In this document: piece by piece, positions 3,761 through 61,730 of the stretch | Numbering within the stretch: the stretch's first letter is position 1 | How the letters are laid out: each line of letters begins with the position of its first letter | Assembly (NCBI GenBank): GCA_944381185.1 | Contig: CALWKE010000002.1 | Coordinates: 2,050-66,049 of the forward strand | Source of the DNA: an uncultured Clostridia bacterium | GTDB taxonomy: Bacteria; Bacillota; Clostridia; Christensenellales; UBA1242 | Direction of reading: 5' to 3' | Length of the DNA: 64,000 bases | The notes under the pieces: generated by a model | The model's input: only the letters and a program-made list of their open reading frames with translations | Database searches by the model: none | What the model was told of the DNA's origin: nothing | Made by a program: the position numbers and the translations under genes

Positions 3761-4606
3761 TTATTTTTTGAAAAATGCAACGGCTATTGCATCTGGACCA
3801 ACATGAGTTCCGATAGTTGAACCAATCATATAAGTTGGAATTTCATTTGTTTCATGTTGCCAAATGTGTGCATGGTCTTTTAAATATTTTTGAAGAAATG
3901 TATCACTCAATCCCGAGTAGGCAACGCAATAAGGCATTTCAAAGTCAACGCCTCCACATTTTTCAATTTCTTGATTTAAAAGATTATTTCCTTTTTTTGA
4001 GCCTATGGCTTTTCCAACAAGTTTAACTTCGCCGTCAACAACTGCAACAACGGGTTTTATTGAAAGAAGTTCACCAGTAAAGGCGGCGAGTGATGAAATT
4101 CTTCCACCTTTACGTAAATATTTAAGAGTTGCAAGAACAGCTAAAACTTTTATATTTTTTTTCTTTTTATTAAGTTCATCAGCAATTTCACTTGCTGATT
4201 TATTTTGTTTTATAAGTTTCAAAGCATACAAAATTAACACTCTTTCGCCAATGCAGGCATTCAAACTATCCACAACAAAAACTTTGCCACCAAATTTTTT
4301 AGATGCTTTTACGGCTGAATTATATGTGTTTGAAAGTTTAGATGAAAGAACAATCGCAACAACTTCGTCACCATTTTGTGTAAGTTTTTCAAATGCTTCG
4401 CTAAATCTAAATTCATTGATTTGACTTGTTTTAGGAATTTCAACACTTTCAATCAATTTTTCAAAAAATTCTTTATGTGAAAGGTTAACTCCATCAAGAT
4501 AAGTTGTGTCGCCGAATGTAACTTCCATAGGAAGCATTTCAACTCCATATTTTTCTGCTTCTTCTTTATCAAAATCGCAAGATGAATCAACTAAAATTTT
4601 AACCAT
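3761..4606 (-). CDS. DegV family fatty-acid-binding protein
   Basis: 281 aa. N-terminus MVKILVDSSCDF.. and the ..SSKLSNTYNSA.., ..LKYLRKGGRIS.. blocks are typical DegV/FakB motifs. Confidence 0.9.
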   Translation of the reverse strand: MVKILVDSSCDFDKEEAEKYGVEMLPMEVTFGDTTYLDGVNLSHKEFFEKLIESVEIPKTSQINEFRFSEAFEKLTQNGDEVVAIVLSSKLSNTYNSAVKASKKFGGKVFVVDSLNACIGERVLILYALKLIKQNKSASEIADELNKKKKNIKVLAVLATLKYLRKGGRISSLAAFTGELLSIKPVVAVVDGEVKLVGKAIGSKKGNNLLNQEIEKCGGVDFEMPYCVAYSGLSDTFLQKYLKDHAHIWQHETNEIPTYMIGSTIGTHVGPDAIAVAFFKK

Positions 4607-11618: not shown

Positions 11619-12482
11619 ATGAAAGAAAAAATTAAAATAATAACAGACACAACAACAAGTCTTTCTCCTGAAGAATGTAAAAAGTTAGATTTAGATTATG
11701 TTGAAACAACTTATGTGGTTGATGGTGAAGAACATTCTGCCTATGATAATGAAAGTGAAACTCTTCCAATGTTTTATGAAAAACTTGATAATATAAAATC
11801 TTGCTCAACGGGGTGTGTTAATGTGCAGGCATTTGAAGATGTTTTCACAAAATGGATAAATCAAGGTTATAAAGTTATTTATACAGGTTTAAGTGCAGCA
11901 TTAAGTTCAACATATCAAAATGCAAAGATTGCAGCTGATAAAATTAATAATGAACATGGCAAAAAACTTGTTGTTACAATTGATAGCAGGTCGGCTAGTT
12001 ATGGCACACTTTGCCTTATTGATGAAATTAAAGAGTTGATTGAAAAAGAAAAATCTATTGAAGAAATTGAAAAACTTGTTGATGCTATGGCGCACAATAT
12101 GTCGGTTGCTTTTGTTTGTCGAGATCTGTCATTTTTGCATAAAAGTGGAAGAATAAGTTTGCTTTCTGCGGGGCTTGGAAAACTTTTGCATGTTGTTCCA
12201 ATTGTTTATGTCAGCAAAGAAGATGCAAAACTTCGAGTTGGTGATAAATGCTTGGGCTCAAAACTTGCGTTCAAAACCTTGAAAAATAGATTTATTAATT
12301 TTATAAAAGAGAAAAAACATAAAAGATGTTATATAACAAGTTGCAATTTGCCAAATGAAGTTGAAGAACTAAAAAAGGCAATAATTGAAAACACAGATAT
12401 AAAAGAAGTCAAAACGGGACTTATTGATAAGACTCTTGCATGTTGCTGTGGTCCAAAAACAATCGCTATTTTCTGTGGTTAA
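11619..12482 (+). CDS. DegV family fatty-acid-binding protein
   Basis: 287 aa. KIKIITDTTTSL.., ..SAALSSTYQNA.. and ..LHKSGRISL.. are DegV motifs. Second paralogue in the window. Confidence 0.9.
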   Translation: MKEKIKIITDTTTSLSPEECKKLDLDYVETTYVVDGEEHSAYDNESETLPMFYEKLDNIKSCSTGCVNVQAFEDVFTKWINQGYKVIYTGLSAALSSTYQNAKIAADKINNEHGKKLVVTIDSRSASYGTLCLIDEIKELIEKEKSIEEIEKLVDAMAHNMSVAFVCRDLSFLHKSGRISLLSAGLGKLLHVVPIVYVSKEDAKLRVGDKCLGSKLAFKTLKNRFINFIKEKKHKRCYITSCNLPNEVEELKKAIIENTDIKEVKTGLIDKTLACCCGPKTIAIFCG

Positions 12483-13344: not shown

Positions 13345-13379
13345 ACAAAAAATCTCACAACTCAATGTGAGATTTTTTT
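13345..13379. terminator. bidirectional terminator shared by the lipoprotein gene (+) and tRNA-Lys (-)
   Basis: AAAAAAATCTCACA-ACTCAA-TGTGAGATTTTTTT: an 8-bp stem abutting the tRNA 3' CCA. Confidence 0.8.
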
Positions 13380-13454
13380 GGTGGGCGATCAGGGACTCGA
13401 ACCCTGGACCTTATGATTAAGAGTCATCTGCTCTACCAACTGAGCTAATCGCCC
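13379..13454 (-). tRNA. tRNA-Lys (anticodon CUU)
   Basis: The reverse complement GGGCGATTAGCTCAGTTGGTAGAGCAGATGACTCTTAATCATAAGGTCCAGGGTTCGAGTCCCTGATCGCCCACCA folds as a cloverleaf. It has a 7-bp acceptor stem, GCTC/GAGC D stem, CTCTTAA anticodon loop, GGTTCGAGTCC T arm and an encoded CCA. Confidence 0.93.
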
Positions 13455-15763: not shown

Positions 15764-16825
15764 ATTATTTCAGTTTTAGAAATTAACTTAAAAGCAATAA
15801 AAAGTAATTTTGAATTAGTTAAAAACAAAATAAAGGTAGGTCAAAAAATTTGTGTTGTGGTCAAGGCAAATGCTTATGGTTTTGGAGCAAAAGAAGTTGT
15901 GAAAACCCTTCAAAAAGATGCAGATTATTTTGCCGTGTCGTCAGCCTATGAGTATTTTGAGATTAACAAACTCACAAGTAAACCAATTTTAATTTTAGAC
16001 CCAATTTATGATGAGAATGAATTAAAAAAACTTATTGGGGTTGGGGCTGAACTTTCAGTTTGTAATTTGTTTGGTTTGGAAAAAATTATTGAAGTGAGTT
16101 CAAAATTAAACAAAAAAGCAAAGGTTCATATTGCAATCAACACTGGTATGAACAGATTTGGATTTAAAGAAAAAAGAGAATTTGTTAAGTTGTTGAATAC
16201 TGTCAAAAAAACGCAAAATTTATGTGTTTTAGGTGTATTTTCACACTATTTTCAAGCAAATAATAAAAATTTTGCAAATTTGCAGTATAATAAATTTAAT
16301 GATATAAAATTATTTTTTGATCAAAACTTACCAGAAATTAAACTTTTTCATCTTGCAAATTCTGATGGATTAGAATATAAAAATGGATTTGATATGGTTA
16401 GAGTTGGCATGGCTCTTTACACTGACAAAGAATTTCAAACGGTTTCTCTTTCAACTAAAATTGTTGATGTGCAAAACTTATCTAAAGGAGAAGTTGCAGG
16501 TTATGATGCAGTTTTTAAAGCAACAAAAAGTGTAAAACTCGCAAGTATTCAAATAGGCTATGGAGATGGAATTTTTAGGAATATCGCTGGCAGAGGATAT
16601 GTTTTAATAAACGGAAAATTTTCTAAAATTGTTGCAGTTTGTATGGATTCTATGATTGTTGATATAACCGAGATTGATGCAAAAATTGGTGATGAAGTAA
16701 CTGTTATTGGTAAAAATGGAGACAATCAAATTTTTATTTGTGATGTTGCATCATGGTGTGATACAATAGATTATGAAATTATAATTGGGCTTGCTGAACG
16801 AGTTGAAAGAAGATACATAAGTTGA
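15764..16825 (+). CDS. alr: alanine racemase (probable non-canonical ATT start)
   Basis: PLP-lysine motif VVKANAYG and collinear Alr sequence. The track ORF starts at GTG 15857, right at that motif. The 31 in-frame codons upstream encode an Alr-like N-terminus (IISVLEINLKAIKSNFELVKNKIKVGQKICV) with GAGGTG just before two ATT codons. Confidence 0.85.
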   Translation: MISVLEINLKAIKSNFELVKNKIKVGQKICVVVKANAYGFGAKEVVKTLQKDADYFAVSSAYEYFEINKLTSKPILILDPIYDENELKKLIGVGAELSVCNLFGLEKIIEVSSKLNKKAKVHIAINTGMNRFGFKEKREFVKLLNTVKKTQNLCVLGVFSHYFQANNKNFANLQYNKFNDIKLFFDQNLPEIKLFHLANSDGLEYKNGFDMVRVGMALYTDKEFQTVSLSTKIVDVQNLSKGEVAGYDAVFKATKSVKLASIQIGYGDGIFRNIAGRGYVLINGKFSKIVAVCMDSMIVDITEIDAKIGDEVTVIGKNGDNQIFICDVASWCDTIDYEIIIGLAERVERRYIS

Positions 16826-16833
16826 GGTTTTTT

Positions 16834-17382
16834 ATGCAAATTATTACAGGCAAATACAGAGCAAGAAAACTTGATGCCGTTCGTGGCGACACAACAAGAC
16901 CAACTCTTGCAAGGGTAAAAGAATCAATTTTTAATTTACTTTCAGTGGGTTATTCAAATCTTATTGTTCTTGACCTTTTTGCAGGAAGTGGTGCTTATGG
17001 CATTGAATGCATCAGTCGTGGTGCAAAAAAAGTTATTTTTGTTGACAGAGAAAAAGAGGCTGTTAGAACAATTACTAATAACACCAGAAATATGAATGAT
17101 GATTTTGAAATTATTCATTCGGATTATGAAAAGGCATTAAATAATTTTGCTGAAAAAAAATTAAAGTTTGATTTGGTGTTTCTTGACCCGCCTTATAAAA
17201 GCAGTTATTTGCAAAAATCTCTTGAATTATTACATTTGCTTAAATTACTAAAAAAAGGTGCAATTATTGTGTGTGAACACGAGTTTGAAAATGATTTGCA
17301 AAGTTTGCCAAATTGTTATATAATAGAGAAGTCAAGAAAATATGGCATTGCCTATGTTGACATAATTGTTTTTAATGGGTAA
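16834..17382 (+). CDS. rsmD: 16S rRNA (guanine966-N2)-methyltransferase RsmD
   Basis: MQIITGKYRARKL..RPT..., SAM motif DLFAGSGAYGIE and the DPPY motif (FLDPPYKS). Confidence 0.9.
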   Translation: MQIITGKYRARKLDAVRGDTTRPTLARVKESIFNLLSVGYSNLIVLDLFAGSGAYGIECISRGAKKVIFVDREKEAVRTITNNTRNMNDDFEIIHSDYEKALNNFAEKKLKFDLVFLDPPYKSSYLQKSLELLHLLKLLKKGAIIVCEHEFENDLQSLPNCYIIEKSRKYGIAYVDIIVFNG

Positions 17383-17387
17383 AGATT

Positions 17388-17876
17388 ATGGATATTGTTC
17401 AAATTATTGATGAACTTGAGCAAGAGTTTGCAAATTCAAAAAACTTTTTGTGGAGCAAAAAAACTCTTGTTGATATGGAAAAATGTGCTTCTCTTATTGC
17501 AGAGCTTAAAGCAAGTTTGCCATCTGCAATTCAAGAGGCAAGCTATGTGCTTTCAAAAAAAGACCAAATTTTAAATAAAGCAAATTCCGATGCTAAAAAA
17601 ACTATTGCTGAAGCTGAATTTCGAGCCGAGCAACTTGTGAGTTCGTCAGAAATTTTTAAAAAGAGTGAACAAGAAGCAAGTGAAATGATTGAAAAAGCTA
17701 ATAGAAAATGTGCTGAACTTTATGCAGTTACTAAAGATAATGTTGACAAGATGCTTAAATCTGTTGAAACATATTTAGACCAAAATTTAAATGTGATTAG
17801 AAGAAATCGTGATGAACTTGAAAAAGCAATTAACAATATTAAAGTTTCAGTTATTTCAGATGAACATGACAACTAA
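17388..17876 (+). CDS. coiled-coil protein, unknown function
   Basis: 162 aa, predicted all-helical and rich in E/K/A. Starts 6 nt after rsmD. Occupies the slot where coaD lies in the Bacillus ylb cluster but is not a CoaD homologue. Confidence 0.6.
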   Translation: MDIVQIIDELEQEFANSKNFLWSKKTLVDMEKCASLIAELKASLPSAIQEASYVLSKKDQILNKANSDAKKTIAEAEFRAEQLVSSSEIFKKSEQEASEMIEKANRKCAELYAVTKDNVDKMLKSVETYLDQNLNVIRRNRDELEKAINNIKVSVISDEHDN

Positions 17877-18908
17877 AATGTAACAAATCAAAGCGGAAAA
17901 AAATGAATGCACAACTTTTGTAAAAATAAAGTTGTGTGTTTTTATTTTTGCATTTTTTAAAAATGCCATAGATTGCATGATGATTGATATTCCACTAAAA
18001 GAAATTAAAGCAGATGCAAGTATTATTGTTTCTTTGCAAATATGTAGCGATAAACTTTTGCAACCTCTTGTTACTTCAACAATTCCATATAATGTTTCTT
18101 TAAAATAGGGGAGATTTATTCCAAGTTTATTAAATACGCTAGAGAAAAAATATGTTATAAAATTAAATATGTTCAAGACATCTAGAAGTTCACTAACCAA
18201 ATAGAAAATTGTTATGTAGGCTCCAACAATAAACAGGGAGTTAATTGTTTCGCTAACACAATAATTTAAAATATTTGCATTTTTTGAAAAATTAACAGAA
18301 TTTTGAATTGTTGTATTTTTTGAAAAATTTTGATTTTTTGTTTTAAGTTTATTAAATATATTTGCTAAAATGCCTAAAAATATACTTGAAAGAATATGGG
18401 AAAAATAGAGGATTAAACCAAATTTGAAACTTTTAAACATGATTGAGCCAACAGTTCCAATAACGAAGACTGGCCCCGATGTTGTGCAGAAAATAGACAT
18501 TTTTTTTGCGTTTTCTTCATTTATTAAATTTTTTGAATAAAGGTCACTTATTATTTTTGCACCAATCGGATATCCTGAAAGTATGCTCATAAAAAATGCA
18601 TAAAGTGAAACCCCGGGAGTTCCAAAGACAGCATATGAAAATTTATCCATTTTTTTTGTGATTTTAAAAACAGTTCCTATTTCTGTTAAAAGTTTTGTTA
18701 AAAGCATAAATGGAAGAAGTCCCGGCAAAACAGAAAACACAAAGAGTTTTAGTCCAGAAATTGTTCCTTCGGTAAATATTGTTGGATTTGAAATGATTAT
18801 TATCATCACAAAAAGTATAAAAATTGTGAGCAAACTATCTTGAAAAAAACTTGAGTTAAAACATTTTAAAAAAGTTTTGTTAGAATTAATTGTTTTTGTT
18901 GGTTTCAT
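17856..18908 (-). CDS. nucleoside-recognition (Gate) domain membrane protein, YlbJ-like
   Basis: About 350 aa polytopic protein resembling the YlbJ/nucleoside-transporter-gate family. ATG 18908 (MKPTKT..) is preferred to the track start 19004, which would overlap the divergent gene. Confidence 0.6.
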   Translation of the reverse strand: MKPTKTINSNKTFLKCFNSSFFQDSLLTIFILFVMIIIISNPTIFTEGTISGLKLFVFSVLPGLLPFMLLTKLLTEIGTVFKITKKMDKFSYAVFGTPGVSLYAFFMSILSGYPIGAKIISDLYSKNLINEENAKKMSIFCTTSGPVFVIGTVGSIMFKSFKFGLILYFSHILSSIFLGILANIFNKLKTKNQNFSKNTTIQNSVNFSKNANILNYCVSETINSLFIVGAYITIFYLVSELLDVLNIFNFITYFFSSVFNKLGINLPYFKETLYGIVEVTRGCKSLSLHICKETIILASALISFSGISIIMQSMAFLKNAKIKTHNFIFTKVVHSFFSALICYILVVMFI

Positions 18909-32861: not shown

Positions 32862-33155
32862 TTAAATTAAAAATGGGTCGTTTTTAAGTGCTTGTTCAAT
32901 ATCATCATATTCATTTGCAAGTTTTTTCAAATCATTTTTAAGTTCTTCTGAATTTCGACATAAAAAACCCGGATTCATCGCAATAATATAAGTTAAATCA
33001 TCAACAGGATACCCAAATGAAATTAGTATGTTAAGGTTTTCAGATGCTTCATCAACTGAAAGTTCTTCAAGTACGGGTGATTGTTCAACTAATGTTTCAA
33101 TTTCTCCGTCATCAAATTTTAATTCTTTAAAAAAGTTATATAAAAGTTTATCCAT
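32862..33155 (-). CDS. small mTERF-like helical repeat protein
   Basis: 98 aa from ATG 33155, with AAGGAG 8 nt upstream. The track start 33233 would overlap the upstream gene. Contains two motif copies of type ..GEIETLVEQSPVLEELS.. / ..FGYPVDDLTYIIAMNPGFLCRNSEEL... Confidence 0.7.
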   Translation of the reverse strand: MDKLLYNFFKELKFDDGEIETLVEQSPVLEELSVDEASENLNILISFGYPVDDLTYIIAMNPGFLCRNSEELKNDLKKLANEYDDIEQALKNDPFLI

Positions 33156-33165
33156 ATTATTCTCC

Positions 33166-34386
33166 TTAATCTTTTTGAAGAGGTGGCTCAATTTTGAGCG
33201 AACTATAAGTTTCATAAATTTGATCGATTGCATTTTCGTTAAGTGGATATAACTTCATTAGGTCGTTACTAGTTGCTTTGAATTGTCTTTTAAATTCTGG
33301 TTCAGATTCATCAAGTTGCCTTGGGGTTGAATTTAATCCTAAATCATGTTTAATATACATATATCTTGCATAAATTTTTTCAGGACTAGTTACAAACCAA
33401 CCATTAATTTTCATATATGATTTATCTGGAAACATTGTTGCCCAAAGTGCATATTTTATTTTTAGATCAGCAGTTGGGCACATTAAAATTCGTGGATTAT
33501 TTTGGATATCAGCAAGTGTTATTCCAATTTCATTTAAAATTGTTAGTTTTTTTATTACAGATTTTGGATTTTCGCTGTTTTCATCACAATCAAGACCAAG
33601 AAGGGTAGGAAACTTTTGAAGATTTTCATTGGTTAACCCCAATATTTCCTTATAAAACTTAATTTTTCTTATAACTGAAGTTTTATTTTTTTCGTTGTAT
33701 GTGTCATAGCAAAGTAGGGTAGGAAATTGTTGAAATTGTTTGTTAGTAAACCCAAGTGTATCTTTATAAAATTTGATTTTTGCTCGTATTGATGTTGGAA
33801 CGCCTTCATCAGAAGAACAATCAGATGTTAAAAGGTTTGGCAAAATTTGAAATTGCTTATTAGTAAACCCAAGGGTATCTTTATAAAATTTGATTTTAGA
33901 CCTTATTGATGTTGGGTTATTTATATCTTCTAAAATGCAATCGTAACTTAAAAGAGAAGGGGTTGTTTTTAATTGTTTGTTAGTAAAACCAAGTTCAGTT
34001 TTAAAAAATTTCACTTTGGCTTGTATTGATGTTGGGTTTTCTTCAGGGCTTGAAAATGTGTCACTTGTGATTATATTTGGTATTTTTTGAAATTGCTTTT
34101 TTGTGAAGCCAAGTTCGGTTTTATAATATTCAATTCTCTTATTTGCAGAAGATGGTTTTTCACTTAATTCTAAAACAAGCAATGTGAAATAATTTAAAAT
34201 TTGATCAAGTGAAAGGCCAACTTCGTTTTTGTAAAAATCAATTTTATCAAGCCACATTTGTTTACTTTGATTGAGTATTGCGTGAAAAGAACTTTTTTCA
34301 ATTTTGCTGTAATAATATTCGGCTTGTTCATCAGTTAATTTTAATGTGTTAATTAAAAAATCTTTTGTGATTTGAATTTTTGCCAT
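33166..34386 (-). CDS. mTERF-like helical repeat protein (about 7 tandem ~38-aa repeats)
   Basis: 406 aa. Repeats have the form PTSIRAKIKFYKDTLGFTNKQFQxxPxLLxxD, matching the mTERF motif pattern (Lys/Pro-x-hydrophobic-x-F-L-x-x-LG-F/L-S/T-x-x-x-hydrophobic-x-x-x-P-x-L-L). Confidence 0.75.
   Translation of the reverse strand: MAKIQITKDFLINTLKLTDEQAEYYYSKIEKSSFHAILNQSKQMWLDKIDFYKNEVGLSLDQILNYFTLLVLELSEKPSSANKRIEYYKTELGFTKKQFQKIPNIITSDTFSSPEENPTSIQAKVKFFKTELGFTNKQLKTTPSLLSYDCILEDINNPTSIRSKIKFYKDTLGFTNKQFQILPNLLTSDCSSDEGVPTSIRAKIKFYKDTLGFTNKQFQQFPTLLCYDTYNEKNKTSVIRKIKFYKEILGLTNENLQKFPTLLGLDCDENSENPKSVIKKLTILNEIGITLADIQNNPRILMCPTADLKIKYALWATMFPDKSYMKINGWFVTSPEKIYARYMYIKHDLGLNSTPRQLDESEPEFKRQFKATSNDLMKLYPLNENAIDQIYETYSSLKIEPPLQKD
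33560..34145 (-). repeat. intragenic tandem repeat, period about 114-117 bp, about 5 copies
   Basis: The near-identical core TTAGTAAACCCAAG(T/G)GTATCTTTATAAAATTTGATTTT recurs about 117 bp apart on the + strand (near 33743 and 33860). More diverged copies flank it. This encodes the protein repeats of the 406-aa gene. Confidence 0.75.
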
Positions 34387-49360: not shown

Positions 49361-49696
49361 ATGCTTAATGCAGGAATTATGACCGAAGAAGAATTTGATG
49401 CAATTATTAATTCAAAAAAGATTTGTGTTTGTGATTTTTCAGCTTCTTGGTGTGGACCATGCAGAATGATGGCTCCTGTTCTTGAAGATATTTCAGATAA
49501 ATATAAGGGTAAATATTATTTTTATCAAATTGATATTGATAGTGCGGAAGACCTTGCAAACAAATATCAAGTTTCAGCTGTTCCAACTATAATTGTTTTT
49601 TCAAATGGCAAAGAAATTGGAAGAACAATGAGCTATCAAGATTACTATGAATTTGAAAGATTTTTAAATAATACTGTTAAAAAAGCCGAGCAATAA
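49361..49696 (+). CDS. trxA: thioredoxin
   Basis: WCGPC active site and a thioredoxin-fold length of about 105-111 aa. Confidence 0.92.
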   Translation: MLNAGIMTEEEFDAIINSKKICVCDFSASWCGPCRMMAPVLEDISDKYKGKYYFYQIDIDSAEDLANKYQVSAVPTIIVFSNGKEIGRTMSYQDYYEFERFLNNTVKKAEQ

Positions 49697-49805
49697 TTTG
49701 CTTGGTTTTTTTATAAAAATCGCATTAATTTTAATAAAAATGCAATTTTTTATGGTTAAAATAGCCTAAAATTATAATTTTTTGCGAAAAATTTGTTTTT
49801 TAGTA

Positions 49806-49834
49806 TTGATTTTTGTTTCTTTTAGTTATATTAT
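49806..49834 (+). promoter_or_regulatory. sigma-A promoter of the nifS/nifU-like pair
   Basis: TTGATT-17 nt-TATTAT, 54 nt upstream of the ATG. Follows the thioredoxin terminator. Confidence 0.6.
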
Positions 49835-49859
49835 AATAATATAAATTAAGGAGAAAATT

Positions 49860-51044
49860 ATGGAAGGAAAAACAATCTATTTAGACTATGCTTCAACAAC
49901 TCCAATTTCAGCAGATGTCTATAAAAAGATGCTTGAATGTTTTAACAAATATCAGGGAAACACATCAAGCATTTATGCTCTTGGCAGGCGAGCAGATGCA
50001 GAACTTGAAGAGGCAAGAGTTAAGGTTGCAAAAGCAATAGGTGCCGAGCCAGATGAAATTTATTTTACTTCAGGTGGAACAGAGGCTAATAACTGGGCTA
50101 TTAAAGGTATTGCAAGAGCAAACAAAGATAGGGGTAATCACATCATTACTTCGTGTATTGAGCACCCATCAGTGCTTGAATCTTGCAGAGAACTTGAAAG
50201 AGAAGGTTTTAAAGTTACCTATGTTCCAGTTGATGAAAATGGTGTTGTTGACTATGCGTCAATAATCAAAGCTATTGGACCAAACACAATTTTAATTTCA
50301 ATTATGACTGCAAACAATGAAGTTGGTTCACTAGAACCTATTCGTGCAATTGCAGAACTTGCAAACCAAAATGAAGTTTATTTTCATACTGATGCAGTTA
50401 GTGCAATTGGTGCAATCAATATCAATGTTAAAGAGTTAGGCGTTGACGCACTTTCACTTTCAGCACACACAATCTATGGTCCAAAAGGTGTTGGTGCACT
50501 TTATATTAAGCGTGGAACAAAAATTGATAAGTTTATGTCTGGAACGGGTGAAGAAGGCGGAATGCGTGCAGGCACAGTGAATGTTCCTGCTTGTGCTGGC
50601 TTTGGTGTTGCCATTGAAAATGCAACCACTGAACTTGAAGAAAAAGTTCGTGATGTTAGAGTTCTTCGAAAATATTTTCAAAAGAAAGTTTCAGAAGCTA
50701 TTCATAACATTTCGCTCAATGGTCACCCAACACAAAGACTTGCCAATAACTGTTCAATTTCATTTGAAGGTGCTGAAGCAGAAGCTATTGTTATGATGCT
50801 TGACAAAGAGGGAATTTGTGCTTCAAATGGTTCAAGTTTTGGTGCATTTTTAAACGAGCCATCACATGTTCTTGTTGCAATGGGCAAAGATATGGAAACA
50901 GTTAGGTCAACTGTTCGCTTTACTTTTGGTGCTGAAATTTCAAGAGAAGAAATTGATGGTGTTGTTGAAACACTTCGAAAGATTGTTAAGAAAATCAGAA
51001 GTATTTCTGCTATAAGAATCTATAAAAATAAGGTGGAGTTATAG
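49860..51044 (+). CDS. NifS/IscS-like class V aminotransferase-fold protein, predicted catalytically inactive
   Basis: Collinear with cysteine desulfurases (..YLDYASTTP.., ..SCIEHPSV.., ..FHTDAV.., ..YGPKGVGALY.., ..EPSHVL..). However SxHK reads SAHT (T204) and GSAC reads GSSF (F327). See findings. Confidence 0.85.
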   Translation: MEGKTIYLDYASTTPISADVYKKMLECFNKYQGNTSSIYALGRRADAELEEARVKVAKAIGAEPDEIYFTSGGTEANNWAIKGIARANKDRGNHIITSCIEHPSVLESCRELEREGFKVTYVPVDENGVVDYASIIKAIGPNTILISIMTANNEVGSLEPIRAIAELANQNEVYFHTDAVSAIGAININVKELGVDALSLSAHTIYGPKGVGALYIKRGTKIDKFMSGTGEEGGMRAGTVNVPACAGFGVAIENATTELEEKVRDVRVLRKYFQKKVSEAIHNISLNGHPTQRLANNCSISFEGAEAEAIVMMLDKEGICASNGSSFGAFLNEPSHVLVAMGKDMETVRSTVRFTFGAEISREEIDGVVETLRKIVKKIRSISAIRIYKNKVEL

Positions 51045-51045
51045 T

Positions 51046-51426
51046 ATGATGTATTCAAATAAGATAATGGAAGAATTTTATAATCCTGAAAACTATGGCG
51101 TTATAAAAGGTGCAAGTGGTGTTGGAAAGGTTGTGTCTGATGTTGGCAGTGAGATTATAAAAATTTATATTAAAGTTGAAGGTGACAAAGTCACCGAAGC
51201 ACAATATCAAACTTATGGTGGTGTTGTTGCTATTGCTTGCACAAATATTGCAACAAAACTTATTATGGGCAAGTCACTTTCTGCAATCAGCAGAATGAAT
51301 GAAAATAATATTTTAGAAATAACGGGTGAAATTCCTGAAAACAAGATGTATGTTGTGACACTTGTTGTTAACGCTATGCATGCAGCGGTTGAAAGTTATT
51401 ACAATAAGAGTGCAAAAGATGACTAA
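51046..51426 (+). CDS. NifU/IscU-like protein lacking all three cluster-ligand cysteines
   Basis: Collinear with the IscU N-terminal domain (YSNKIMEEFYNPENYG.., ..IIKIYIKVEGDKV.., ..MHAAVESYY..). CGD->GSE, GC->GG and HC->YV. Start lies 2 nt after the nifS-like stop. Confidence 0.85.
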   Translation: MMYSNKIMEEFYNPENYGVIKGASGVGKVVSDVGSEIIKIYIKVEGDKVTEAQYQTYGGVVAIACTNIATKLIMGKSLSAISRMNENNILEITGEIPENKMYVVTLVVNAMHAAVESYYNKSAKDD

Positions 51427-51510
51427 TAAAAAAAGAGCAAATGCTTAAAGTATTTGTTCTTTTTTATTGACTTGAAAATTTTTTAATTATAATATAGGTC
51501 TAGGTGAAAA

Positions 51511-53383: not shown

Positions 53384-54352
53384 TTATTGCATAGATTTTT
53401 CGTCAATTGATTGTTCAATTTCAATTTTTCTAATTTGCACTTGATTTATGTTTGTTTTGTAAAGTGCAGATTTATTAAAACTAGCAAGTTCGCCAATTGT
53501 TTTGATACCAAGGTCTTTAATTTTATGCATGAGTCCTTTTGCAAGATTTAATGTTTCAACTGAAAGATTTAATGTTTCTTCAGTTGCAGAAAAATAAGAA
53601 TTTTGAACGATTGTTGGCTTTGTCATTGTTGTTGTCTCCTTATATTTAGTTGTTGAAGTTATTAAATTATCTGTTTGGACTGTGGCGTGCAAATTTTGTG
53701 TTTGAGTGCTATTTAATTCTTGATTTTGCAAATACATTTGATAATCATAAATAAATTTTTCGTAACGCTTTTGAATAGCTTGTTTTTTGATATTTAAATA
53801 TTTATTTTCTCGTTTACCAGTTTGCTCAATTTTAGATGCGTTTCTTTCAAAAAAAACTCCATATTTTGCAAGTTCGGTTTTAAGTTTTTCAATTTCTTCC
53901 GATTCTATGCCGTATTTTTTAAGTATGCTTGATTTTAATATTGAAAGGTCACCGAGAGTTTCAACACCTGAATTTTTTATAAATTTTATTTTTCCAATTT
54001 TATTATAGAGTTGTTCACCAATGTCTAATATATCAACTGAAAAATCATAAGTTGAATAATCAGAATCAAGCAAGTGCAAACCAAAAACTGCAAGGGAATT
54101 TTTTAACTCGTCAATAATTTTTGTAGGAGTGATTTTTAAATTTCCAATATGTCGAATAAGAACTGCGTAAAGGTCAGCACTTTTAACTTTTGTTAAATCG
54201 CCAATAGTTGCAAGTGATTGAACAAAGGTTACGCCCGTTACTTCTTTTTCAATTTTTTTAAAAACTTCCTTTGAAGGGGCTGACAAATCTAGGGCATAGA
54301 TTGGAAAGTCTAATATTCTTTTTTCAGGGCTAATTGGTGGTTTAAAAAGCAT
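53384..54352 (-). CDS. protein with three RNA polymerase alpha-subunit C-terminal-domain-like (HhH) modules
   Basis: 322 aa. Three segments resemble the alpha-CTD pattern (..L-[DN]-L-S-x-x-x-x-N-x-L-x-x-x-G-I-x-T-[IV]-G-[DE]-L..). An example is TLNLSVETLNLAKGLMHKIKDLGIKTIGELASFNKSALYK. Confidence 0.6.
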   Translation of the reverse strand: MLFKPPISPEKRILDFPIYALDLSAPSKEVFKKIEKEVTGVTFVQSLATIGDLTKVKSADLYAVLIRHIGNLKITPTKIIDELKNSLAVFGLHLLDSDYSTYDFSVDILDIGEQLYNKIGKIKFIKNSGVETLGDLSILKSSILKKYGIESEEIEKLKTELAKYGVFFERNASKIEQTGKRENKYLNIKKQAIQKRYEKFIYDYQMYLQNQELNSTQTQNLHATVQTDNLITSTTKYKETTTMTKPTIVQNSYFSATEETLNLSVETLNLAKGLMHKIKDLGIKTIGELASFNKSALYKTNINQVQIRKIEIEQSIDEKSMQ

Positions 54353-57061: not shown

Positions 57062-57781
57062 ATGTTATTTAAAAGCAAGAACAAAAATAAAATTGACTAT
57101 GACAATATGCCAAAGCATATTGCTTTTATTTGTGATGGAAACAGAAGATGGGCAAAAAAGCGTGGACTTCCAACTCTTTTGGGGCACAAAGAAGGTGTTG
57201 AAGCAATAAAAAGAGTTGTTAGAAGAGCATCTGAAATAAATTTTCCAAATTTAACATTTTTCTGTTTTTCAACTGAAAATTTTGGAAGAAGCAAAGAAGA
57301 AGTTGACTATCTTTTTAACCTGTTTCGTGGTCTTAAAGATATGATTAAAAGTTTTATTAAATATGACTATCGCTTTCATCACACAGGTGACAGGTCGCTT
57401 TTATCTAAAGATATTTTAGACCTTATTGATGAGGCGGAAGAAACGACCAAAAATTGCAAAAAGGGAACAATAAATATTGCACTTGCCTATGGTGGCAGAA
57501 ATGATATTGTGAATGCTTGCAAAAGAATTGTTAGTGAAAAAGTGAAACCAGAGGATATTACTGAAGAATCTTTTAAAAAGTATTTAACCACTGGTGATAT
57601 GCCCGATGTTGACCTTTTGGTTAGAACAAGTGGCGAACAGAGGATTAGTGGTTTTATGCTCTATAACATGGCATATGCGGAACTCTATTTTGTTAAAAAA
57701 CATTGGCCTTCATTTAAGGGCGAAGACCTTGACGAGTGCATAATTGAATATCAAAAGAGAACTCGCAGGTTTGGAAAATAG
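57062..57781 (+). CDS. uppS: isoprenyl transferase (undecaprenyl-diphosphate synthase)
   Basis: ..HIAFICDGNRRWA.. and ..LLVRTSGEQRISGFML.. are cis-prenyltransferase motifs. Confidence 0.94.
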   Translation: MLFKSKNKNKIDYDNMPKHIAFICDGNRRWAKKRGLPTLLGHKEGVEAIKRVVRRASEINFPNLTFFCFSTENFGRSKEEVDYLFNLFRGLKDMIKSFIKYDYRFHHTGDRSLLSKDILDLIDEAEETTKNCKKGTINIALAYGGRNDIVNACKRIVSEKVKPEDITEESFKKYLTTGDMPDVDLLVRTSGEQRISGFMLYNMAYAELYFVKKHWPSFKGEDLDECIIEYQKRTRRFGK

Positions 57782-57794
57782 GGGGCAGATACTA

Positions 57795-58706
57795 ATGAAA
57801 AAAGTAATGTTAACCAGAATTATTACTGGGGCGTTTATTTTGCTTTTTACTGTGGCTTTTGTTTTGCTAAAACAAGTGAGCCCATTATTTTTTGATGCCT
57901 TTGTTTTAATCATCAGTGTTGGTGCAATTTATGAAATTAACAAGGCTTATAAAAATGTAGGCAAAAAAGTGAACTGGATTTTGCTTATTTTTGCAACACT
58001 TTCAATGTGTTTGATTAACATTTTTGTTGAAGATGTTTCAAGAGTTTTTATTTATGACATTTTGCTAGCAATGATTTTGTTTGTTGCATTAATGTTAATA
58101 GATATCATTGTTTTTGCAGTTAACCGCAAAAATGGAACAACTGAACCTGATGCGTCGGTTTTAAATAGCACACTTTTTGATCAAACAAAATTCACAATGA
58201 TGAGTTTTGCTTATCCAGTTTTGTTAATTTCTTCACTTTATATGCTCAATCATTTGCCATATGATATTGGCTATATGGGAATAATTGTTTCGTTTGCCGT
58301 TTCAATGCTCACTGATACTTGTGCACTTTTTGTTGGGGTGGCTTGTGGAAAACGAAAATTTGTTCCTGAAGTTTCTCCAAAGAAATCCGTTGCAGGAGTT
58401 GTTGGGGGGCTTATTGGTGGAGTAATTGGTGCAGGACTTTGTTTTGTTATATTTTATTTCACAAACTGGTTTGCTCTTGATGGTATAAGTTTGCTAAAAT
58501 CAATTTCAGCATTTGCTATTGTTGGTGTGATTGGTTCGTTTATCAATCAACTTGGTGACCTTGTTTCTTCCGCTCTTAAACGAAAGGTTGGGCTTAAAGA
58601 TTTTGCACATATTTTCCCCGAACATGGTGGGTTTATGGACAGGGTTGACGGACTTATGTTTGTTTCAACTTTTGTTTATGTAATTTTTAGTTTACTTTTA
58701 GTATAA
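57795..58706 (+). CDS. cdsA: phosphatidate cytidylyltransferase
   Basis: C-terminal signature SALKRKVGLKDFAHIFPEHGGFMDRVDG. ATG is residue 18 of the track ORF. Confidence 0.92.
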   Translation: MKKVMLTRIITGAFILLFTVAFVLLKQVSPLFFDAFVLIISVGAIYEINKAYKNVGKKVNWILLIFATLSMCLINIFVEDVSRVFIYDILLAMILFVALMLIDIIVFAVNRKNGTTEPDASVLNSTLFDQTKFTMMSFAYPVLLISSLYMLNHLPYDIGYMGIIVSFAVSMLTDTCALFVGVACGKRKFVPEVSPKKSVAGVVGGLIGGVIGAGLCFVIFYFTNWFALDGISLLKSISAFAIVGVIGSFINQLGDLVSSALKRKVGLKDFAHIFPEHGGFMDRVDGLMFVSTFVYVIFSLLLV

Positions 58707-58743
58707 AAAATCAATTTTAACATAGAATTTATTAGGAGATAAT

Positions 58744-60084
58744 ATGACCTTTTTATATATTTTGTTAGCACTTGTTATTCTGCTTGTAATGATAACAGTC
58801 CACGAGTTTGGGCATTATTGTGCTGGCAAAATATTAGGTTTTAAAATAAATGAATTTGCAATAGGATTTGGTCCAAAACTTTATTCTAGAACTAAAAAAG
58901 ACGGAGAAGTTTTTTCAGTTCGTGCACTACCTCTTGGTGGTTTTTGTGCTTTTGAAGGTGAAGATGAAGACGGAAAGTCTAATCCGCAGGCAATGAACAA
59001 TCAACCTGCGTGGAAAAGACTTATTGTTCTTTTGTCGGGTGTTGGCTTTAACTTTTTGTTTGGTGTTTTAACTGCTGCAATTTACTTGATGGTTTCAGGT
59101 TATGCTACTGTTATGGTGACTCAAACGATAAATCAACAAGAAATTCAAACCATGGGGCTTCAAAAAAATGATATTGTTGTTGCTGTTGACGGCAAAACAG
59201 TTGAAGCTTATCGTAACTTTTCAAGTTTAATTGCCGATTACAAAGAAGGTGAAGAATTTGTTGTAACCGTTAATCGTGGTGGAGAAATTGTTTATATAAC
59301 TACTAAAAAACAAAAATTTGATGCTTTTTATTATGTTTCATATCAAGATTATTTAAAAGGGCAACTTTACACAAAAACAGGTGAAGATGTTTATGCTCAA
59401 ATAACAGATGAAGAGTATAGCAAACTTTTAGATGATATTGTTAATCAAGACACTTCAAGTGAAGCTATTGATGCGGTTGGCAAGGGCAGTGCACTAACTG
59501 CTGTTTTAGAAGGATATTACTATAAATTAAATGATGAATACAAACCAGCAAATAGTAATGAAATTATAACTCTTTTGGTTTCAGGAAATGCTGACCAAAA
59601 TATACCAGCATCAATTTCTTATGCAACAGCGGGTGTTAGCATGGGAATAATTCAACAAAATGTTGGTGAAAGTTACAACTTTTTTGAAGCCGTGCTTAAA
59701 GCTTGGCCATTCTGTTTTTATCTTTGTGGGTTAATATTAAGTGCTCTTGGTGGGCTTTTCACGGGCTCGACCGCAGTTTCGGAACTTGGTGGAACAATAA
59801 CTGCAATTTCACAAATGGCAGAAATCAGTTCTTACGGAATTAGTTATTTCTTGCTTCTACTTCCGTTAATAGCAATGAACTTGGCGGTGTTTAACATCTT
59901 GCCAATACCAGCACTTGATGGTGCACGGGCTGTGTTTGTTTTAATTGAAATAATATTTAGAAAGCCTGTTAACCGAACAGTTGAAGCATGGATTCACACA
60001 GTAGGTTTGTTTGTGATTTTGGGGTTTGTTATATTTTTAGATGTCTACCACTTTTTTATAGCGTCCTATTTCTTGCGTTTGTGA
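58744..60084 (+). CDS. rseP: RIP metalloprotease RseP (site-2 protease, M50 family)
   Basis: HEFGHY zinc motif in TM1, a PDZ-like middle region and the NILPIPALDG motif near the C-terminus. Confidence 0.92.
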   Translation: MTFLYILLALVILLVMITVHEFGHYCAGKILGFKINEFAIGFGPKLYSRTKKDGEVFSVRALPLGGFCAFEGEDEDGKSNPQAMNNQPAWKRLIVLLSGVGFNFLFGVLTAAIYLMVSGYATVMVTQTINQQEIQTMGLQKNDIVVAVDGKTVEAYRNFSSLIADYKEGEEFVVTVNRGGEIVYITTKKQKFDAFYYVSYQDYLKGQLYTKTGEDVYAQITDEEYSKLLDDIVNQDTSSEAIDAVGKGSALTAVLEGYYYKLNDEYKPANSNEIITLLVSGNADQNIPASISYATAGVSMGIIQQNVGESYNFFEAVLKAWPFCFYLCGLILSALGGLFTGSTAVSELGGTITAISQMAEISSYGISYFLLLLPLIAMNLAVFNILPIPALDGARAVFVLIEIIFRKPVNRTVEAWIHTVGLFVILGFVIFLDVYHFFIASYFLRL

Positions 60085-60110
60085 TTATTTTATTGTATAA
60101 TCAATTTGCT

Positions 60111-61730
60111 ATGGAAAATGAAAAACTTATTGAAGAATTGAATGCAAGAACAAATAATGAATATAAATTTATGCTTAAATCTGCACTCTTAAAACAGAAT
60201 GCAGATTTTTGTGTGATTGAAATTTTTTATCGTGACGGCATTATGCTTTCAAATGAAAAAAAACAAAAATGTAGCGAAATTTTAAAATCTATTTTGCCTA
60301 AAAAGTTTAAATATGAATTCAAATTCATAAAAAACTTTGTGAGTGAAGAGAGAATTGAAGTTGATTTTAAAAATTTGATGAATAAGAGTTTTGCTTCAAT
60401 TTCGTATAAACTTAAAAGTGTAAATAAAAATGAAAATAAATTTCAAATTGATGCAACAATTGATACACTTTCTTTTGATCATGCAGTTCAAAAAAACCTT
60501 TCAAAACTTATTGAAAATGAGTTAAAAAACAGGTACGAAGATTATGAATTTGAATGTAAATTTCAAGAAGGTGAAGTTTTTAAAGAAAATGAAAAAGAGT
60601 TATTAAAAAATAACTTTAAAGAAGAAGAGGTTGATATTTTTGCAAAACGAAAAATTGAAGTCACTGAAAAAGAGGTTTTGCTTGGAGAAGAAATAGAATG
60701 CCCTGCAAGTTACATTAAAGATAAAAAAGAACCTGAAGAGAATGTTGTTTTTTGTGGAAAAATTAAGGATTTAAAAGATATTGTTATAAAAAGAAAACCA
60801 AAACAAAACAATGAAGAAAAAGAAAATAACAAAGAGTCTACTCAAAATTCTGAAAACGAAGAAGTGCAATCAAAGTATAGTCGAAAGATGTTTAAGTGGA
60901 TTCTTGAAGGGTTTACAGGTTCTGTTTCGTGCGTGTTTTTTTCAAACAAAGAAAATCAACCAGTTTTTGAAAAAATAGCAGATAATATGTCAATTATTGT
61001 TCGTGGAAAACTTGAAAATGATAAATATAGTGGTGACCTTTCACTTGTTGTTAAAGATTTGAGTTTATGCAAACTTCCAGAAAAATTTGAAGAAGTTATT
61101 ATATATAAAAAAGAGAAACCTTTTTATGAATTTGTTGAGCCTGAAAACATTGTGACATATAAGCAAGATGACCTTTTGTCGTTTATGCAAGTTGAAGAAG
61201 TTCCGCCACTGCTTGCAGGAAAAACCTATGTTTGCTTTGACTTTGAAACCACAGGTCTTCATTTTGAAGCGGGAGATAAAATTATTGAAATTGGTGCAGT
61301 TAAAATTGAAAATGGTAAAATAACTCAAAGATTTATGAGTTATGTTGACCCTGAAAAGCCAATTCCACCCAAATCTTCTGCAATTAGTGGTATTGTTGAT
61401 AGTGATGTTGCAGGGGCTCCAAAAGATTATGAAATTTTGCAAGACTTTTATAAATTTACTCGTGGGGCAATTCTCATTGGTTACAATAACATAAACTTTG
61501 ATAATGTGTTTTTGATTGGCCAAGGCAAAGAATGTAGATGGGATTTTGCATCAAATGAAACAGACGATGTTTATAGGTATGCACAAAAGTATGTTCATGG
61601 TGTAAAAAATTACAGACTTGGAACAATTGCAGCGGCTCTTGGAGTTACTCTTGATAATGCACACAGGGCAGTATTTGATGCTCTTGCAACCGCTGAAGTG
61701 TTTATTAAGATTGCAAAAATGATAAAATAG
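60111..61730 (+). CDS. PolC-like N-terminal domain + OB fold + DEDDh 3'-5' exonuclease, without PHP or polymerase core
   Basis: 539 aa from ATG 60111. The OB-like segment ..VVFCGKIKDLKDIV..FKWILEGFTGSVSCVFFSNKE..IIVRGKLENDKYSGDLSLVV.. is followed by Exo I VCFDFETTGL, Exo II GYNNINFD and Exo III AHRAVFDALATAE. The stop follows directly. Confidence 0.8.
   Translation: MENEKLIEELNARTNNEYKFMLKSALLKQNADFCVIEIFYRDGIMLSNEKKQKCSEILKSILPKKFKYEFKFIKNFVSEERIEVDFKNLMNKSFASISYKLKSVNKNENKFQIDATIDTLSFDHAVQKNLSKLIENELKNRYEDYEFECKFQEGEVFKENEKELLKNNFKEEEVDIFAKRKIEVTEKEVLLGEEIECPASYIKDKKEPEENVVFCGKIKDLKDIVIKRKPKQNNEEKENNKESTQNSENEEVQSKYSRKMFKWILEGFTGSVSCVFFSNKENQPVFEKIADNMSIIVRGKLENDKYSGDLSLVVKDLSLCKLPEKFEEVIIYKKEKPFYEFVEPENIVTYKQDDLLSFMQVEEVPPLLAGKTYVCFDFETTGLHFEAGDKIIEIGAVKIENGKITQRFMSYVDPEKPIPPKSSAISGIVDSDVAGAPKDYEILQDFYKFTRGAILIGYNNINFDNVFLIGQGKECRWDFASNETDDVYRYAQKYVHGVKNYRLGTIAAALGVTLDNAHRAVFDALATAEVFIKIAKMIK

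Follow-up and report, generated by a model that had tools for sequence, protein, structure and literature searches.

The gene pair and its replaced residues

The window analysed here, a 64,000-nt stretch of contig CALWKE010000002.1 from an uncultured Clostridia bacterium, has a GC content of about 31% and matches contigs of metagenome-assembled genomes named 'Clostridia bacterium', whose named sources are the gut or digestive tract (human gut, sheep, goat and roe deer). Two adjacent genes on its forward strand encode homologues of cysteine desulfurase (IscS/NifS) and of the iron-sulfur (Fe-S) cluster scaffold (IscU/NifU), and are referred to below as S-like and U-like. The S-like gene (49860..51044) encodes a 394-aa protein of the type I NifS/IscS fold, and the U-like gene (51046..51426) encodes a 126-aa protein of the NifU_N/IscU fold. 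Databases name the two products 'cysteine desulfurase' and 'iron-sulfur cluster assembly scaffold protein'. The catalytic lysine and cysteine of the former and all five cluster-ligand positions of the latter are replaced, while the open reading frames (ORFs) are full length, as first described from the ORF list and supported by the Pfam matches. A first-pass annotation had read the two genes as a pseudoenzyme pair, and an intact pair that lacks its key residues and is under purifying selection agrees with that reading.

Residues of both proteins were mapped by HMMER alignments to solved desulfurase and IscU structures and by MAFFT alignments to IscS and IscU of Escherichia coli MG1655. The S-like protein matches Pfam Aminotran_5 (PF00266) with E = 1.1e-76 over residues 6-366, covering profile positions 1-369 of 371, and is therefore collinear with cysteine desulfurase as proposed. 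It is 40% identical to E. coli IscS, and its AlphaFold model (mean predicted local distance difference test, pLDDT, 83) superposes on NFS1 and IscS with template-modelling (TM) scores of 0.85-0.89. The flanking motifs EHPSV, YGPKGVGALY, EPSHVL and MHAAV, cited earlier as preserved, are all present. Three proposed substitutions were confirmed by the alignments and by reading of the codons. The lysine that forms the Schiff base with pyridoxal 5'-phosphate (PLP), Lys206 in E. coli, is T204 (codon ACA, 50469..50471; AAA in the sister species), so that S-x-H-K reads SAHT. F327 (TTT, 50838-50840) occupies the position of the persulfide-forming Cys328 within a remnant of the catalytic loop (residues 322-334, SNGSSFGAFLNEP, 50823..50861) that contains GSSFGA. 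The PLP-contacting glutamine of the DAxQ motif, Gln183 in E. coli, is S181 (AGT, 50400..50402), giving DAVS. The claim that every catalytic residue had been replaced thus holds for this lysine, cysteine and glutamine but fails for the rest of the site, since T74, H102, D178, S201, H203 and R353 are kept, the last five being the equivalents of H104, D180, S203, H205 and R354 of E. coli IscS.

Among NCBIfam models, the S-like protein scored highest with TIGR03402 (FeS_nifS), at 466.8, which lies under the equivalog cut-off of 530.75. The score with TIGR02006 (378.1) is also under the equivalog cut-off (643.2), and that with the loose subfamily model NF002806 (343.6) is over the cut-off of 304. 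Because the PLP lysine and the loop cysteine are both absent, the S-like protein of the source species would make no cysteine persulfide. Retention of D178, H102, S201, H203, T74 and R353 suggests that it probably still holds PLP or pyridoxamine 5'-phosphate (PMP) non-covalently, with no turnover.

The U-like protein matches Pfam NifU_N (PF01592) with E = 1.8e-25 over residues 2-123 (profile positions 1-125 of 127), which supports the collinearity with the IscU/NifU N-domain that had been noted. Its identity to E. coli IscU is 30%, and its AlphaFold model (pLDDT 85) gives TM scores of 0.80-0.86 to IscU structures. As had been reported, the three ligand cysteines and the conserved aspartate are gone. 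G34-S35-E36 (51145..51153) takes the place of Cys-Gly-Asp, with G34 at Cys37 and E36 at Asp39 of E. coli IscU; G59 (51220..51222) stands at Cys63; and Y102-V103 (51349..51354) replaces the pair His105-Cys106. Y102 makes this a loss of the fifth ligand position as well, according to the same alignments and checked codons. The sole cysteine of the protein is C65, which occurs in 69/121 family members. The best NCBIfam model, TIGR03419 (NifU_clost), scored 100.5 against an equivalog cut-off of 187.9, and TIGR01999 scored 59.1, under its cut-off of 192.4. With all cysteine, aspartate and histidine ligands absent, this protein would hold no Fe-S cluster.

The substitutions are fixed in the species. 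The cluster that contains the exact S-like protein has 19 members, which come from NCBI, ENA and Logan assemblies; T204 and F327 are found in 12/12 full-length protein variants of the species cluster, and contigs L025-L027, from three independent assemblies of the species, carry identical codons at the replaced positions. These data refute the suggestion that the changes arose through faulty sequencing or assembly or are confined to a single strain; its remaining probability is negligible. The nearest relatives differ by single-base steps, AAA to ACA at position 204 and the series TGT (Cys), TAT (Tyr) and TTT (Phe) at position 327.

Repeated losses and continued constraint across the family

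The two proteins differ in how their replaced positions are distributed among relatives. In the 120 nearest U-like database homologues (62-100% identity), G34, E36, G59 and Y102 are invariant, position 103 is isoleucine, valine or leucine, and no member has a cysteine at a ligand position (0/120). By comparison, K204 is kept in 110/121 S-like homologues, with threonine only in the source species and leucine in a single further clade. No more than 40/121 retain Cys327, which is otherwise replaced by S, Y, F, E, T, D, N, A, L, I, V or G, or deleted. Conservation of the replacement residues among orthologues, proposed earlier as a check, therefore applies to G34 and G59 of the U-like protein and, within the range I/V/L, to position 103, but not to the S-like protein, in which T204 is confined to one species and position 327 is hypervariable. 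In the clade with K204L (L013, P0104, P0106, P0109 and P0111), the S-like proteins have 10-12 cysteines, compared with 3-8 elsewhere in the family, and a loop that reads S-T-C-T-G-I-E-N.

A family tree combined with parsimony gave six state changes for gain or loss of the loop cysteine and two losses of the lysine; this and all other trees were built by neighbour-joining and carry no support values. Canonical-looking desulfurases, with H102, D178, Q181, S201, H203, K204 and a GSAC loop, lie directly 5' of a ligand-free U-like gene at loci L006, L008-L010, L012, L014, L015 and L028. In the sister clades (L029, L030, L034, L038, L039, L042, L045 and L049), a canonical desulfurase with both lysine and cysteine likewise stands beside a ligand-depleted U-like gene. 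When metagenomes were scanned with the nearby DUF1292 gene as seed, more loci of this kind were recovered, two of them being further independent pairs in which both partners are dead. At L047/L048 the S-like protein has H102D and K204L and lacks the loop cysteine, and at L069 it has H102D, H203D, K204N and a shortened loop; in each case the ORFs are intact and the partner is free of ligands. The desulfurase lysine has been lost only in the source species and about three other lineages, and because L047/L048 and L069 are independent cases additional to the losses within the family, the dead-dead state of the source locus arose about four times. The pairing of S-like and U-like states and the sister-clade loci rule out the coordinated loss in both partners that had been put forward: the losses were sequential and independent, the scaffold ligands went first while the desulfurase stayed canonical in many lineages, and the loop cysteine was lost later.

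A profile of the U-like family was searched against 1.84 billion representative proteins. The family itself formed a single 50%-identity cluster (225 bits), and 76 of the next 149 matches were canonical NifU proteins, interspersed with dozens of other ligand-depleted NifU_N clusters showing patterns such as CGD.S.YA, TGD.G.YG and DRE.C.HC. About half of the 50%-identity NifU_N representatives in the top 150 (P0264-P0412) lack at least one cluster ligand, a proportion that is biased upwards since the profile favours such sequences. The depleted matches often have tyrosine at the His105 position and serine, glycine or asparagine at Cys63, and many of the top 150 carry long Lys/Glu-rich C-terminal tails, in proteins of up to 579 aa. 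IscU-like proteins depleted of ligands thus seem to make up a sizeable and varied assemblage and not a single family. Six of the clusters matched by the profile were traced to their loci.

The starting state of the locus is represented by L032 (GCA_964368755.1), which has the same synteny as the source locus and carries trx-Rrf2-nifS-nifU, all canonical (CGD, C and HC in NifU). Its Rrf2/IscR gene, which has a cysteine motif, adjoins nifS upstream and was found at this locus only. Loci L029, L030, L034, L038 and L039 share the synteny and have a fully canonical desulfurase, with scaffolds that have lost differing subsets of ligands. In a tree of HslU, RuvX, RpsB and Tsf, rooted on L032 as an assumed outgroup, the tight focal family splits off after L029, L030 and L034. 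The ligands retained are not the same from one lineage to the next, and the last shared ancestor of the derived clade must therefore have had all of them. Most simply, selection on the scaffold ligands was released once and parallel erosion followed. Loss of scaffold ligands predates the radiation of dozens of 50%-identity clusters.

Both genes have remained under strong purifying selection, as the proposed comparison of non-synonymous and synonymous rates (omega) bears out. Between the source strain and another strain of the same species (synonymous divergence, dS, ~0.07), omega is 0.079 for S-like, and U-like shows 0 non-synonymous changes. Against the sister species (dS ~0.8), the values are 0.071 for S-like and 0.047 for U-like, and those of TrmFO, HslU and RuvX in the same comparison are 0.074, 0.048 and 0.10. 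Within dead lineages, omega is 0.11-0.13 for S-like and ~0.09 for U-like. All comparisons, dead lineages included, fall at 0.05-0.2, although most inter-species dS values are near saturation, which makes the corresponding omega rough and leaves the within-species and sister-species values unaffected. Relative to four housekeeping proteins, the S-like protein evolves at a rate of 1.27 with the loop cysteine, 1.27 without it and 1.26 in the source species. Both ORFs are intact in about 30 distinct loci, wherever the trx-ruvX stretch was recovered. The earlier argument against random decay is upheld by the intact ORFs and the purifying selection on both genes, and pseudogene decay was rejected on the intact ORFs and low omega.

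The changes on the branch to the source species are concentrated at the active site. Of 16 S-like changes polarised with an outgroup, 9-10 fall in the PLP site or the catalytic loop: Q181S, K204T, I200L and S76A, together with six loop changes. The six others are conservative substitutions. On the sister branch, all 13 changes avoid the PLP-site residues and the loop proper, A321T being located immediately ahead of the loop. No change to cysteine occurred on the source branch, and the only change to lysine was the conservative R316K, outside the PLP site; by this analysis, no distant lysine or cysteine that might serve the active site was gained. This pattern is a local release within an otherwise constrained protein and not decay.

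Constraint is strongest where the two proteins would meet, with interface residues taken from E. coli IscS-IscU as defined in PMC2854127. The IscS-contact residues of the U-like protein have an entropy of 0.12, against 0.76 overall (P = 1e-4 versus random sets), and among the 12 positions equivalent to IscU Y3, Y11, V40, K42, K59-G64 and K103, 10 show conservation of 95% or more. In the S-like protein, the segments that contact IscU have an entropy of 0.41, against 0.68 overall (P = 0.04). Its C-terminal helix (residues 378-389, KIRSISAIRIYK, 50991..51026) is the homologue of helix alpha12, with which E. coli IscS contacts IscU, and R380, S381, S383, A384, R386, I387, Y388 and K389 are invariant or nearly so (at least 98%) in the family. 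The former cysteine loop is the most variable S-like segment, with an entropy of 1.85 against the same 0.68, and the equivalents of the TusA/ThiI/CyaY docking surface are also variable (1.64). Invariance at the former ligand positions of the U-like protein may be held either by a new site or by the interface.

Neighbourhood and other features of the window

The stop codon of the S-like gene (51042-51044) and the ATG at 51046 are separated by 1 nt, and not by 2 nt as first counted; the probable true start of the U-like gene is the second ATG, at 51049, which is the start used by relatives. A Shine-Dalgarno sequence, AAGGAG (49848..49853), is read 6 nt 5' of the S-like start codon. Upstream lies a thioredoxin gene (trx, 49361..49696, forward strand) with a WCGPC motif, which is a conserved neighbour of the pair across the radiation. 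A terminator-like hairpin with a U run follows trx (49685..49711; -16.4 kcal/mol, z = -6.0) and separates it from the S-U unit; it went unflagged in a consensus terminator scan because of its AT-rich stem. A second such hairpin stands directly after the U-like stop codon (51429..51465; -17.3 kcal/mol, z = -7.2). The conserved 1-nt spacing, the strong ribosome-binding site and the flanking terminator-like hairpins argue for expression of the two genes as one unit. Of the dedicated promoter and terminator annotated at first, the latter is supported by the strong folding z-scores; the promoter-like TTGATT-17-TATTAT (49806-49834) is at chance level, with 11 such sites found against 9.9 expected in AT-rich DNA. 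Rfam detected a single RNA gene in the whole window, tRNA-Lys(CTT) at 13379-13454 on the reverse strand, with no riboswitch or leader, and a regulatory RNA 5' of the pair was rejected on this result.

At related loci the pair is always found in a ComM-DprA-TopA-TrmFO-HslV-HslU-Trx-S-U-...-RuvX-DUF1292-RpsB-Tsf neighbourhood, and the nearby genes in the window include trx, a gene for a GtrA-like membrane protein, ruvX and the DUF1292 gene. The slot between hslU and trx is variable: it holds a ThiF-family (TcdA-like) gene in L032 (5333-6848) and L038 (5688-6398) and hisS in L029, L030, L034 and L039, and is empty in the focal family. The DUF1292-rpsB interval also varies among relatives. No remnant of an Rrf2 gene was found in the 163-nt trx-S spacer, and a 107-aa ORF in the corresponding spacer of the sister species (L022) was rejected as such a remnant, being of unrelated sequence. 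Some loci, such as L009, have unrelated extra ORFs between trx and the S-like gene or after the U-like gene, in which reading of the translations by eye, with no scan of a family library, revealed no recognisable link to Fe-S or sulfur metabolism. Genes for Fe-S proteins or SUF components were not found near the pair by Pfam searches of about 40 window ORFs, precomputed Pfam matches on about 20 kb of flanks, or CxxxCxxC and ferredoxin motif scans of all loci; these scans cover one housekeeping neighbourhood and say nothing about the remaining genome. The genes hscBA, fdx and iscA were likewise not among the neighbours of the pair.

Several other features of the window were recorded. The region between rseP and rimP-nusA of Firmicutes usually carries a full-length polC. 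In the window, a 580-aa ORF in that place (59988-61730, forward strand) has only an oligonucleotide-binding (OB) fold and a DnaQ/RNase_T-type exonuclease and no polymerase domain; versions of 502-519 aa occupy the same place in L025, L037 and L038. The genes uppS, cdsA and rseP are consecutive (57062-60084, forward strand) and lack dxr or ispG, which Firmicutes often have in this cluster. The arrangement hints at a methylerythritol phosphate pathway, some enzymes of which are Fe-S proteins, that may be absent or may be encoded in another part of the genome. Two adjacent reverse-strand ORFs (33166-34386 and 32862-33233) have weak matches (E = 1.3e-6 and 3.1e-5) to mTERF, a domain mostly known from organelles. 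A 322-aa protein without cysteine or tryptophan (53384-54352, reverse strand) weakly resembles the C-terminal domain of the RNA polymerase alpha subunit, and the sister species (L022) has a 723-aa version and a 223-aa ORF in its place. One DegV-family paralogue (11619-12482, forward strand) has 12 cysteines, and another copy (3761-4606) has 4. Sporulation genes are located just past the window end. In L037, about 5 kb past the position equivalent to the window end, a 490-aa call (16564-18036) joins AP_endonuc_2 to a complete elongation factor P, either through a possible gene fusion or because two genes may have been called as one, and is followed by spoIIIAA and spoIIIAE.

Possible roles of a pair without its key residues

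The pair is probably a pseudoenzyme complex kept for a non-catalytic role, with the S-U complex itself under selection. By the order of events read from related genomes, it descends from a canonical IscR-NifS-NifU operon that first lost its Rrf2/IscR gene and ceased to require the scaffold ligands. The ligands then eroded in differing, lineage-specific combinations beside an intact desulfurase. The focal family next froze the old U-like cluster site as an invariant G-x-E, G and Y-[IVL], after which the loop cysteine of the desulfurase was lost several times and the lysine also in about four lineages, the source species included. In every state, selection has kept the fold and the S-U interface and not the sulfur relay. 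The NifS-like dimer and its NifU-like partner may still form the classical S2U2 complex, a stable assembly that could be used for its binding or structural properties.

Several observations weigh against this interpretation. K204 is kept in most lineages that lack the loop cysteine, and D178, S201, H203 and R353 are almost invariant, so that a PLP-dependent but cysteine-independent property seems to have been selected in most of the family. Such retention fits residual chemistry or ligand binding better than it fits a purely structural role. The source species and three other lineages, however, can do without this property as well. In addition, omega for the S-like protein is 0.11-0.13 in dead lineages and 0.06 in one pair with both lysine and cysteine, about a twofold difference, and the S-like proteins of L017 and L018 are faster, at about twice the housekeeping rate (~1.6x faster evolution); some constraint has therefore been lost together with the chemistry.

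The retained PLP site leads to an alternative in which the pair is an enzyme with non-canonical chemistry, using non-covalent PLP or another nucleophile (one of the conserved C109, C298 and C320, or a cysteine of a partner), with the U-like protein as activator or product acceptor. Candidate activities would be the cysteine-independent reactions of NifS-type proteins, such as those of selenocysteine lyase, cysteine sulfinate desulfinase and C-DES-like cystine lyase. The conservation of K204, D178, S201, H203 and R353 in most members without the loop cysteine suggests that the PLP site still matters there, and C298 is nearly invariant in the focal family while being a non-cysteine residue in L029, L030 and E. 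coli IscS. In the source species, however, the Schiff-base lysine is gone through AAA to ACA and no cysteine was gained on the branch. The loop is hypervariable, with many residues or deletions at 327, which speaks against a new specific role for that position; L047/L048, L017/L018 and L069 have lost H102 too, and some of them also H203; and the U-like protein has no conserved cysteine as an acceptor of sulfur or selenium, given that C65 occurs in little more than half of the family. This alternative is unlikely. A metal- or iron-handling U-like protein with oxygen ligands (E36, Y102, D32 and S31/S35), for which the dead S-like protein would be a docking platform, is also improbable. It draws on the invariance of G34, E36, G59 and Y102 over 62-100% identity, unlike the decayed S-like loop, and on tyrosine at His105 and an acidic residue at Asp39, which recur among numerous independent relatives depleted of ligands. 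Glycine, with which no metal ligation is possible, nevertheless accounts for two of the invariant replacements, and G58, G59 and V60 lie in the IscS-contact strand, where the interface alone may explain their invariance.

It is very improbable that the genes are functionless relics, still undisrupted and heading for loss. Catalytic residues have indeed been lost progressively and repeatedly, and gene decay is common in reduced genomes, as these appear to be from the GC content and from longest contigs of 0.4-0.8 Mb. The relic explanation conflicts with ORFs that stay intact across the loci, with low omega even within dead lineages, with an S-like protein about as slow as TopA, TrmFO and HslU and best conserved at its interface residues, and with a loss of scaffold ligands older than the radiation. 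Residual non-canonical catalysis, an oxygen-ligand metal site, relics and artefact are all weaker explanations than a retained pseudoenzyme complex.

Known systems provide partial parallels. The nearest precedent, the IscS of Archaeoglobus fulgidus (4HVK, 4EB5), which was matched in both sequence and fold searches, shares the type I IscS/NifS fold and the replacement of the lysine. Its Schiff-base position is naturally Asp199, it has no desulfurase activity, it binds PMP non-covalently and it occurs in complex with an IscU-type partner whose ligands are all retained; the loop cysteine is kept and is a proposed [2Fe-2S] ligand, and the complex is thought to assemble clusters using sulfide (PMC8918507). 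The source pair, in contrast, has neither the loop cysteine nor any ligand left in the partner, and the sulfide mechanism is inapplicable to it for that reason. Apart from this protein, the literature covered, which is incomplete, yielded no cysteine-less IscU family and no doubly dead NifS/NifU pair. The canonical clostridial NifS/NifU systems (TIGR03402/TIGR03419) have the same gene order, tight desulfurase-scaffold junction and folds, but the source locus differs from the IscR-IscS-IscU type in lacking the lysine, the cysteine, the five scaffold ligands and the Rrf2 gene. In comparison with E. coli IscS-IscU (3LVL), interface positions are conserved above background, including those of IscS helix alpha8, E347 and helix alpha12, whereas variability in the source family is among the highest at the TusA/ThiI/CyaY-surface equivalents and in the Cys328 loop.

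SufU is a Zn-dependent sulfurtransferase with an IscU-like fold, the cysteine ligands of which bind Zn and accept persulfide. It is a precedent for an IscU fold turned from scaffold to desulfurase accessory, and was matched weakly in sequence and fold. SufU keeps its cysteine ligands while the U-like protein has none, and the TM scores of the U-like protein are 0.54-0.59 to SufU, compared with the 0.80-0.86 to IscU. PADLOC and NCBIfam models of DndA/SspA also match the S-like protein strongly, although no dndBCDE or sspBCD neighbours are present at the source locus and the catalytic lysine and cysteine are absent. Membership in a Dnd/Ssp defence system was rejected, the matches reflecting general IscS homology and PADLOC being negative for all neighbours.

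Metabolic reconstructions based on the current names would credit these uncultured yet common gut Clostridia with an Fe-S or sulfur-relay system that the source species would be unable to run. The locus also provides a natural ordered series, from the canonical operon through loss of the scaffold ligands and then of the persulfide cysteine to loss of the PLP lysine. Purifying selection acts in all of these states, and each is represented more than once. The series separates constraint on the desulfurase-scaffold complex from constraint on its chemistry and makes a non-catalytic role testable. More tentatively, the IscS-IscU architecture could have a function for which sulfur need not be mobilised and no cluster need be bound, and which holds both proteins at housekeeping-level constraint across the radiation, the frozen U-like site being a new functional site and not a scar. 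If this is true, and if the role was inherited and not newly acquired, the same moonlighting function may lie hidden in canonical IscS-IscU complexes.

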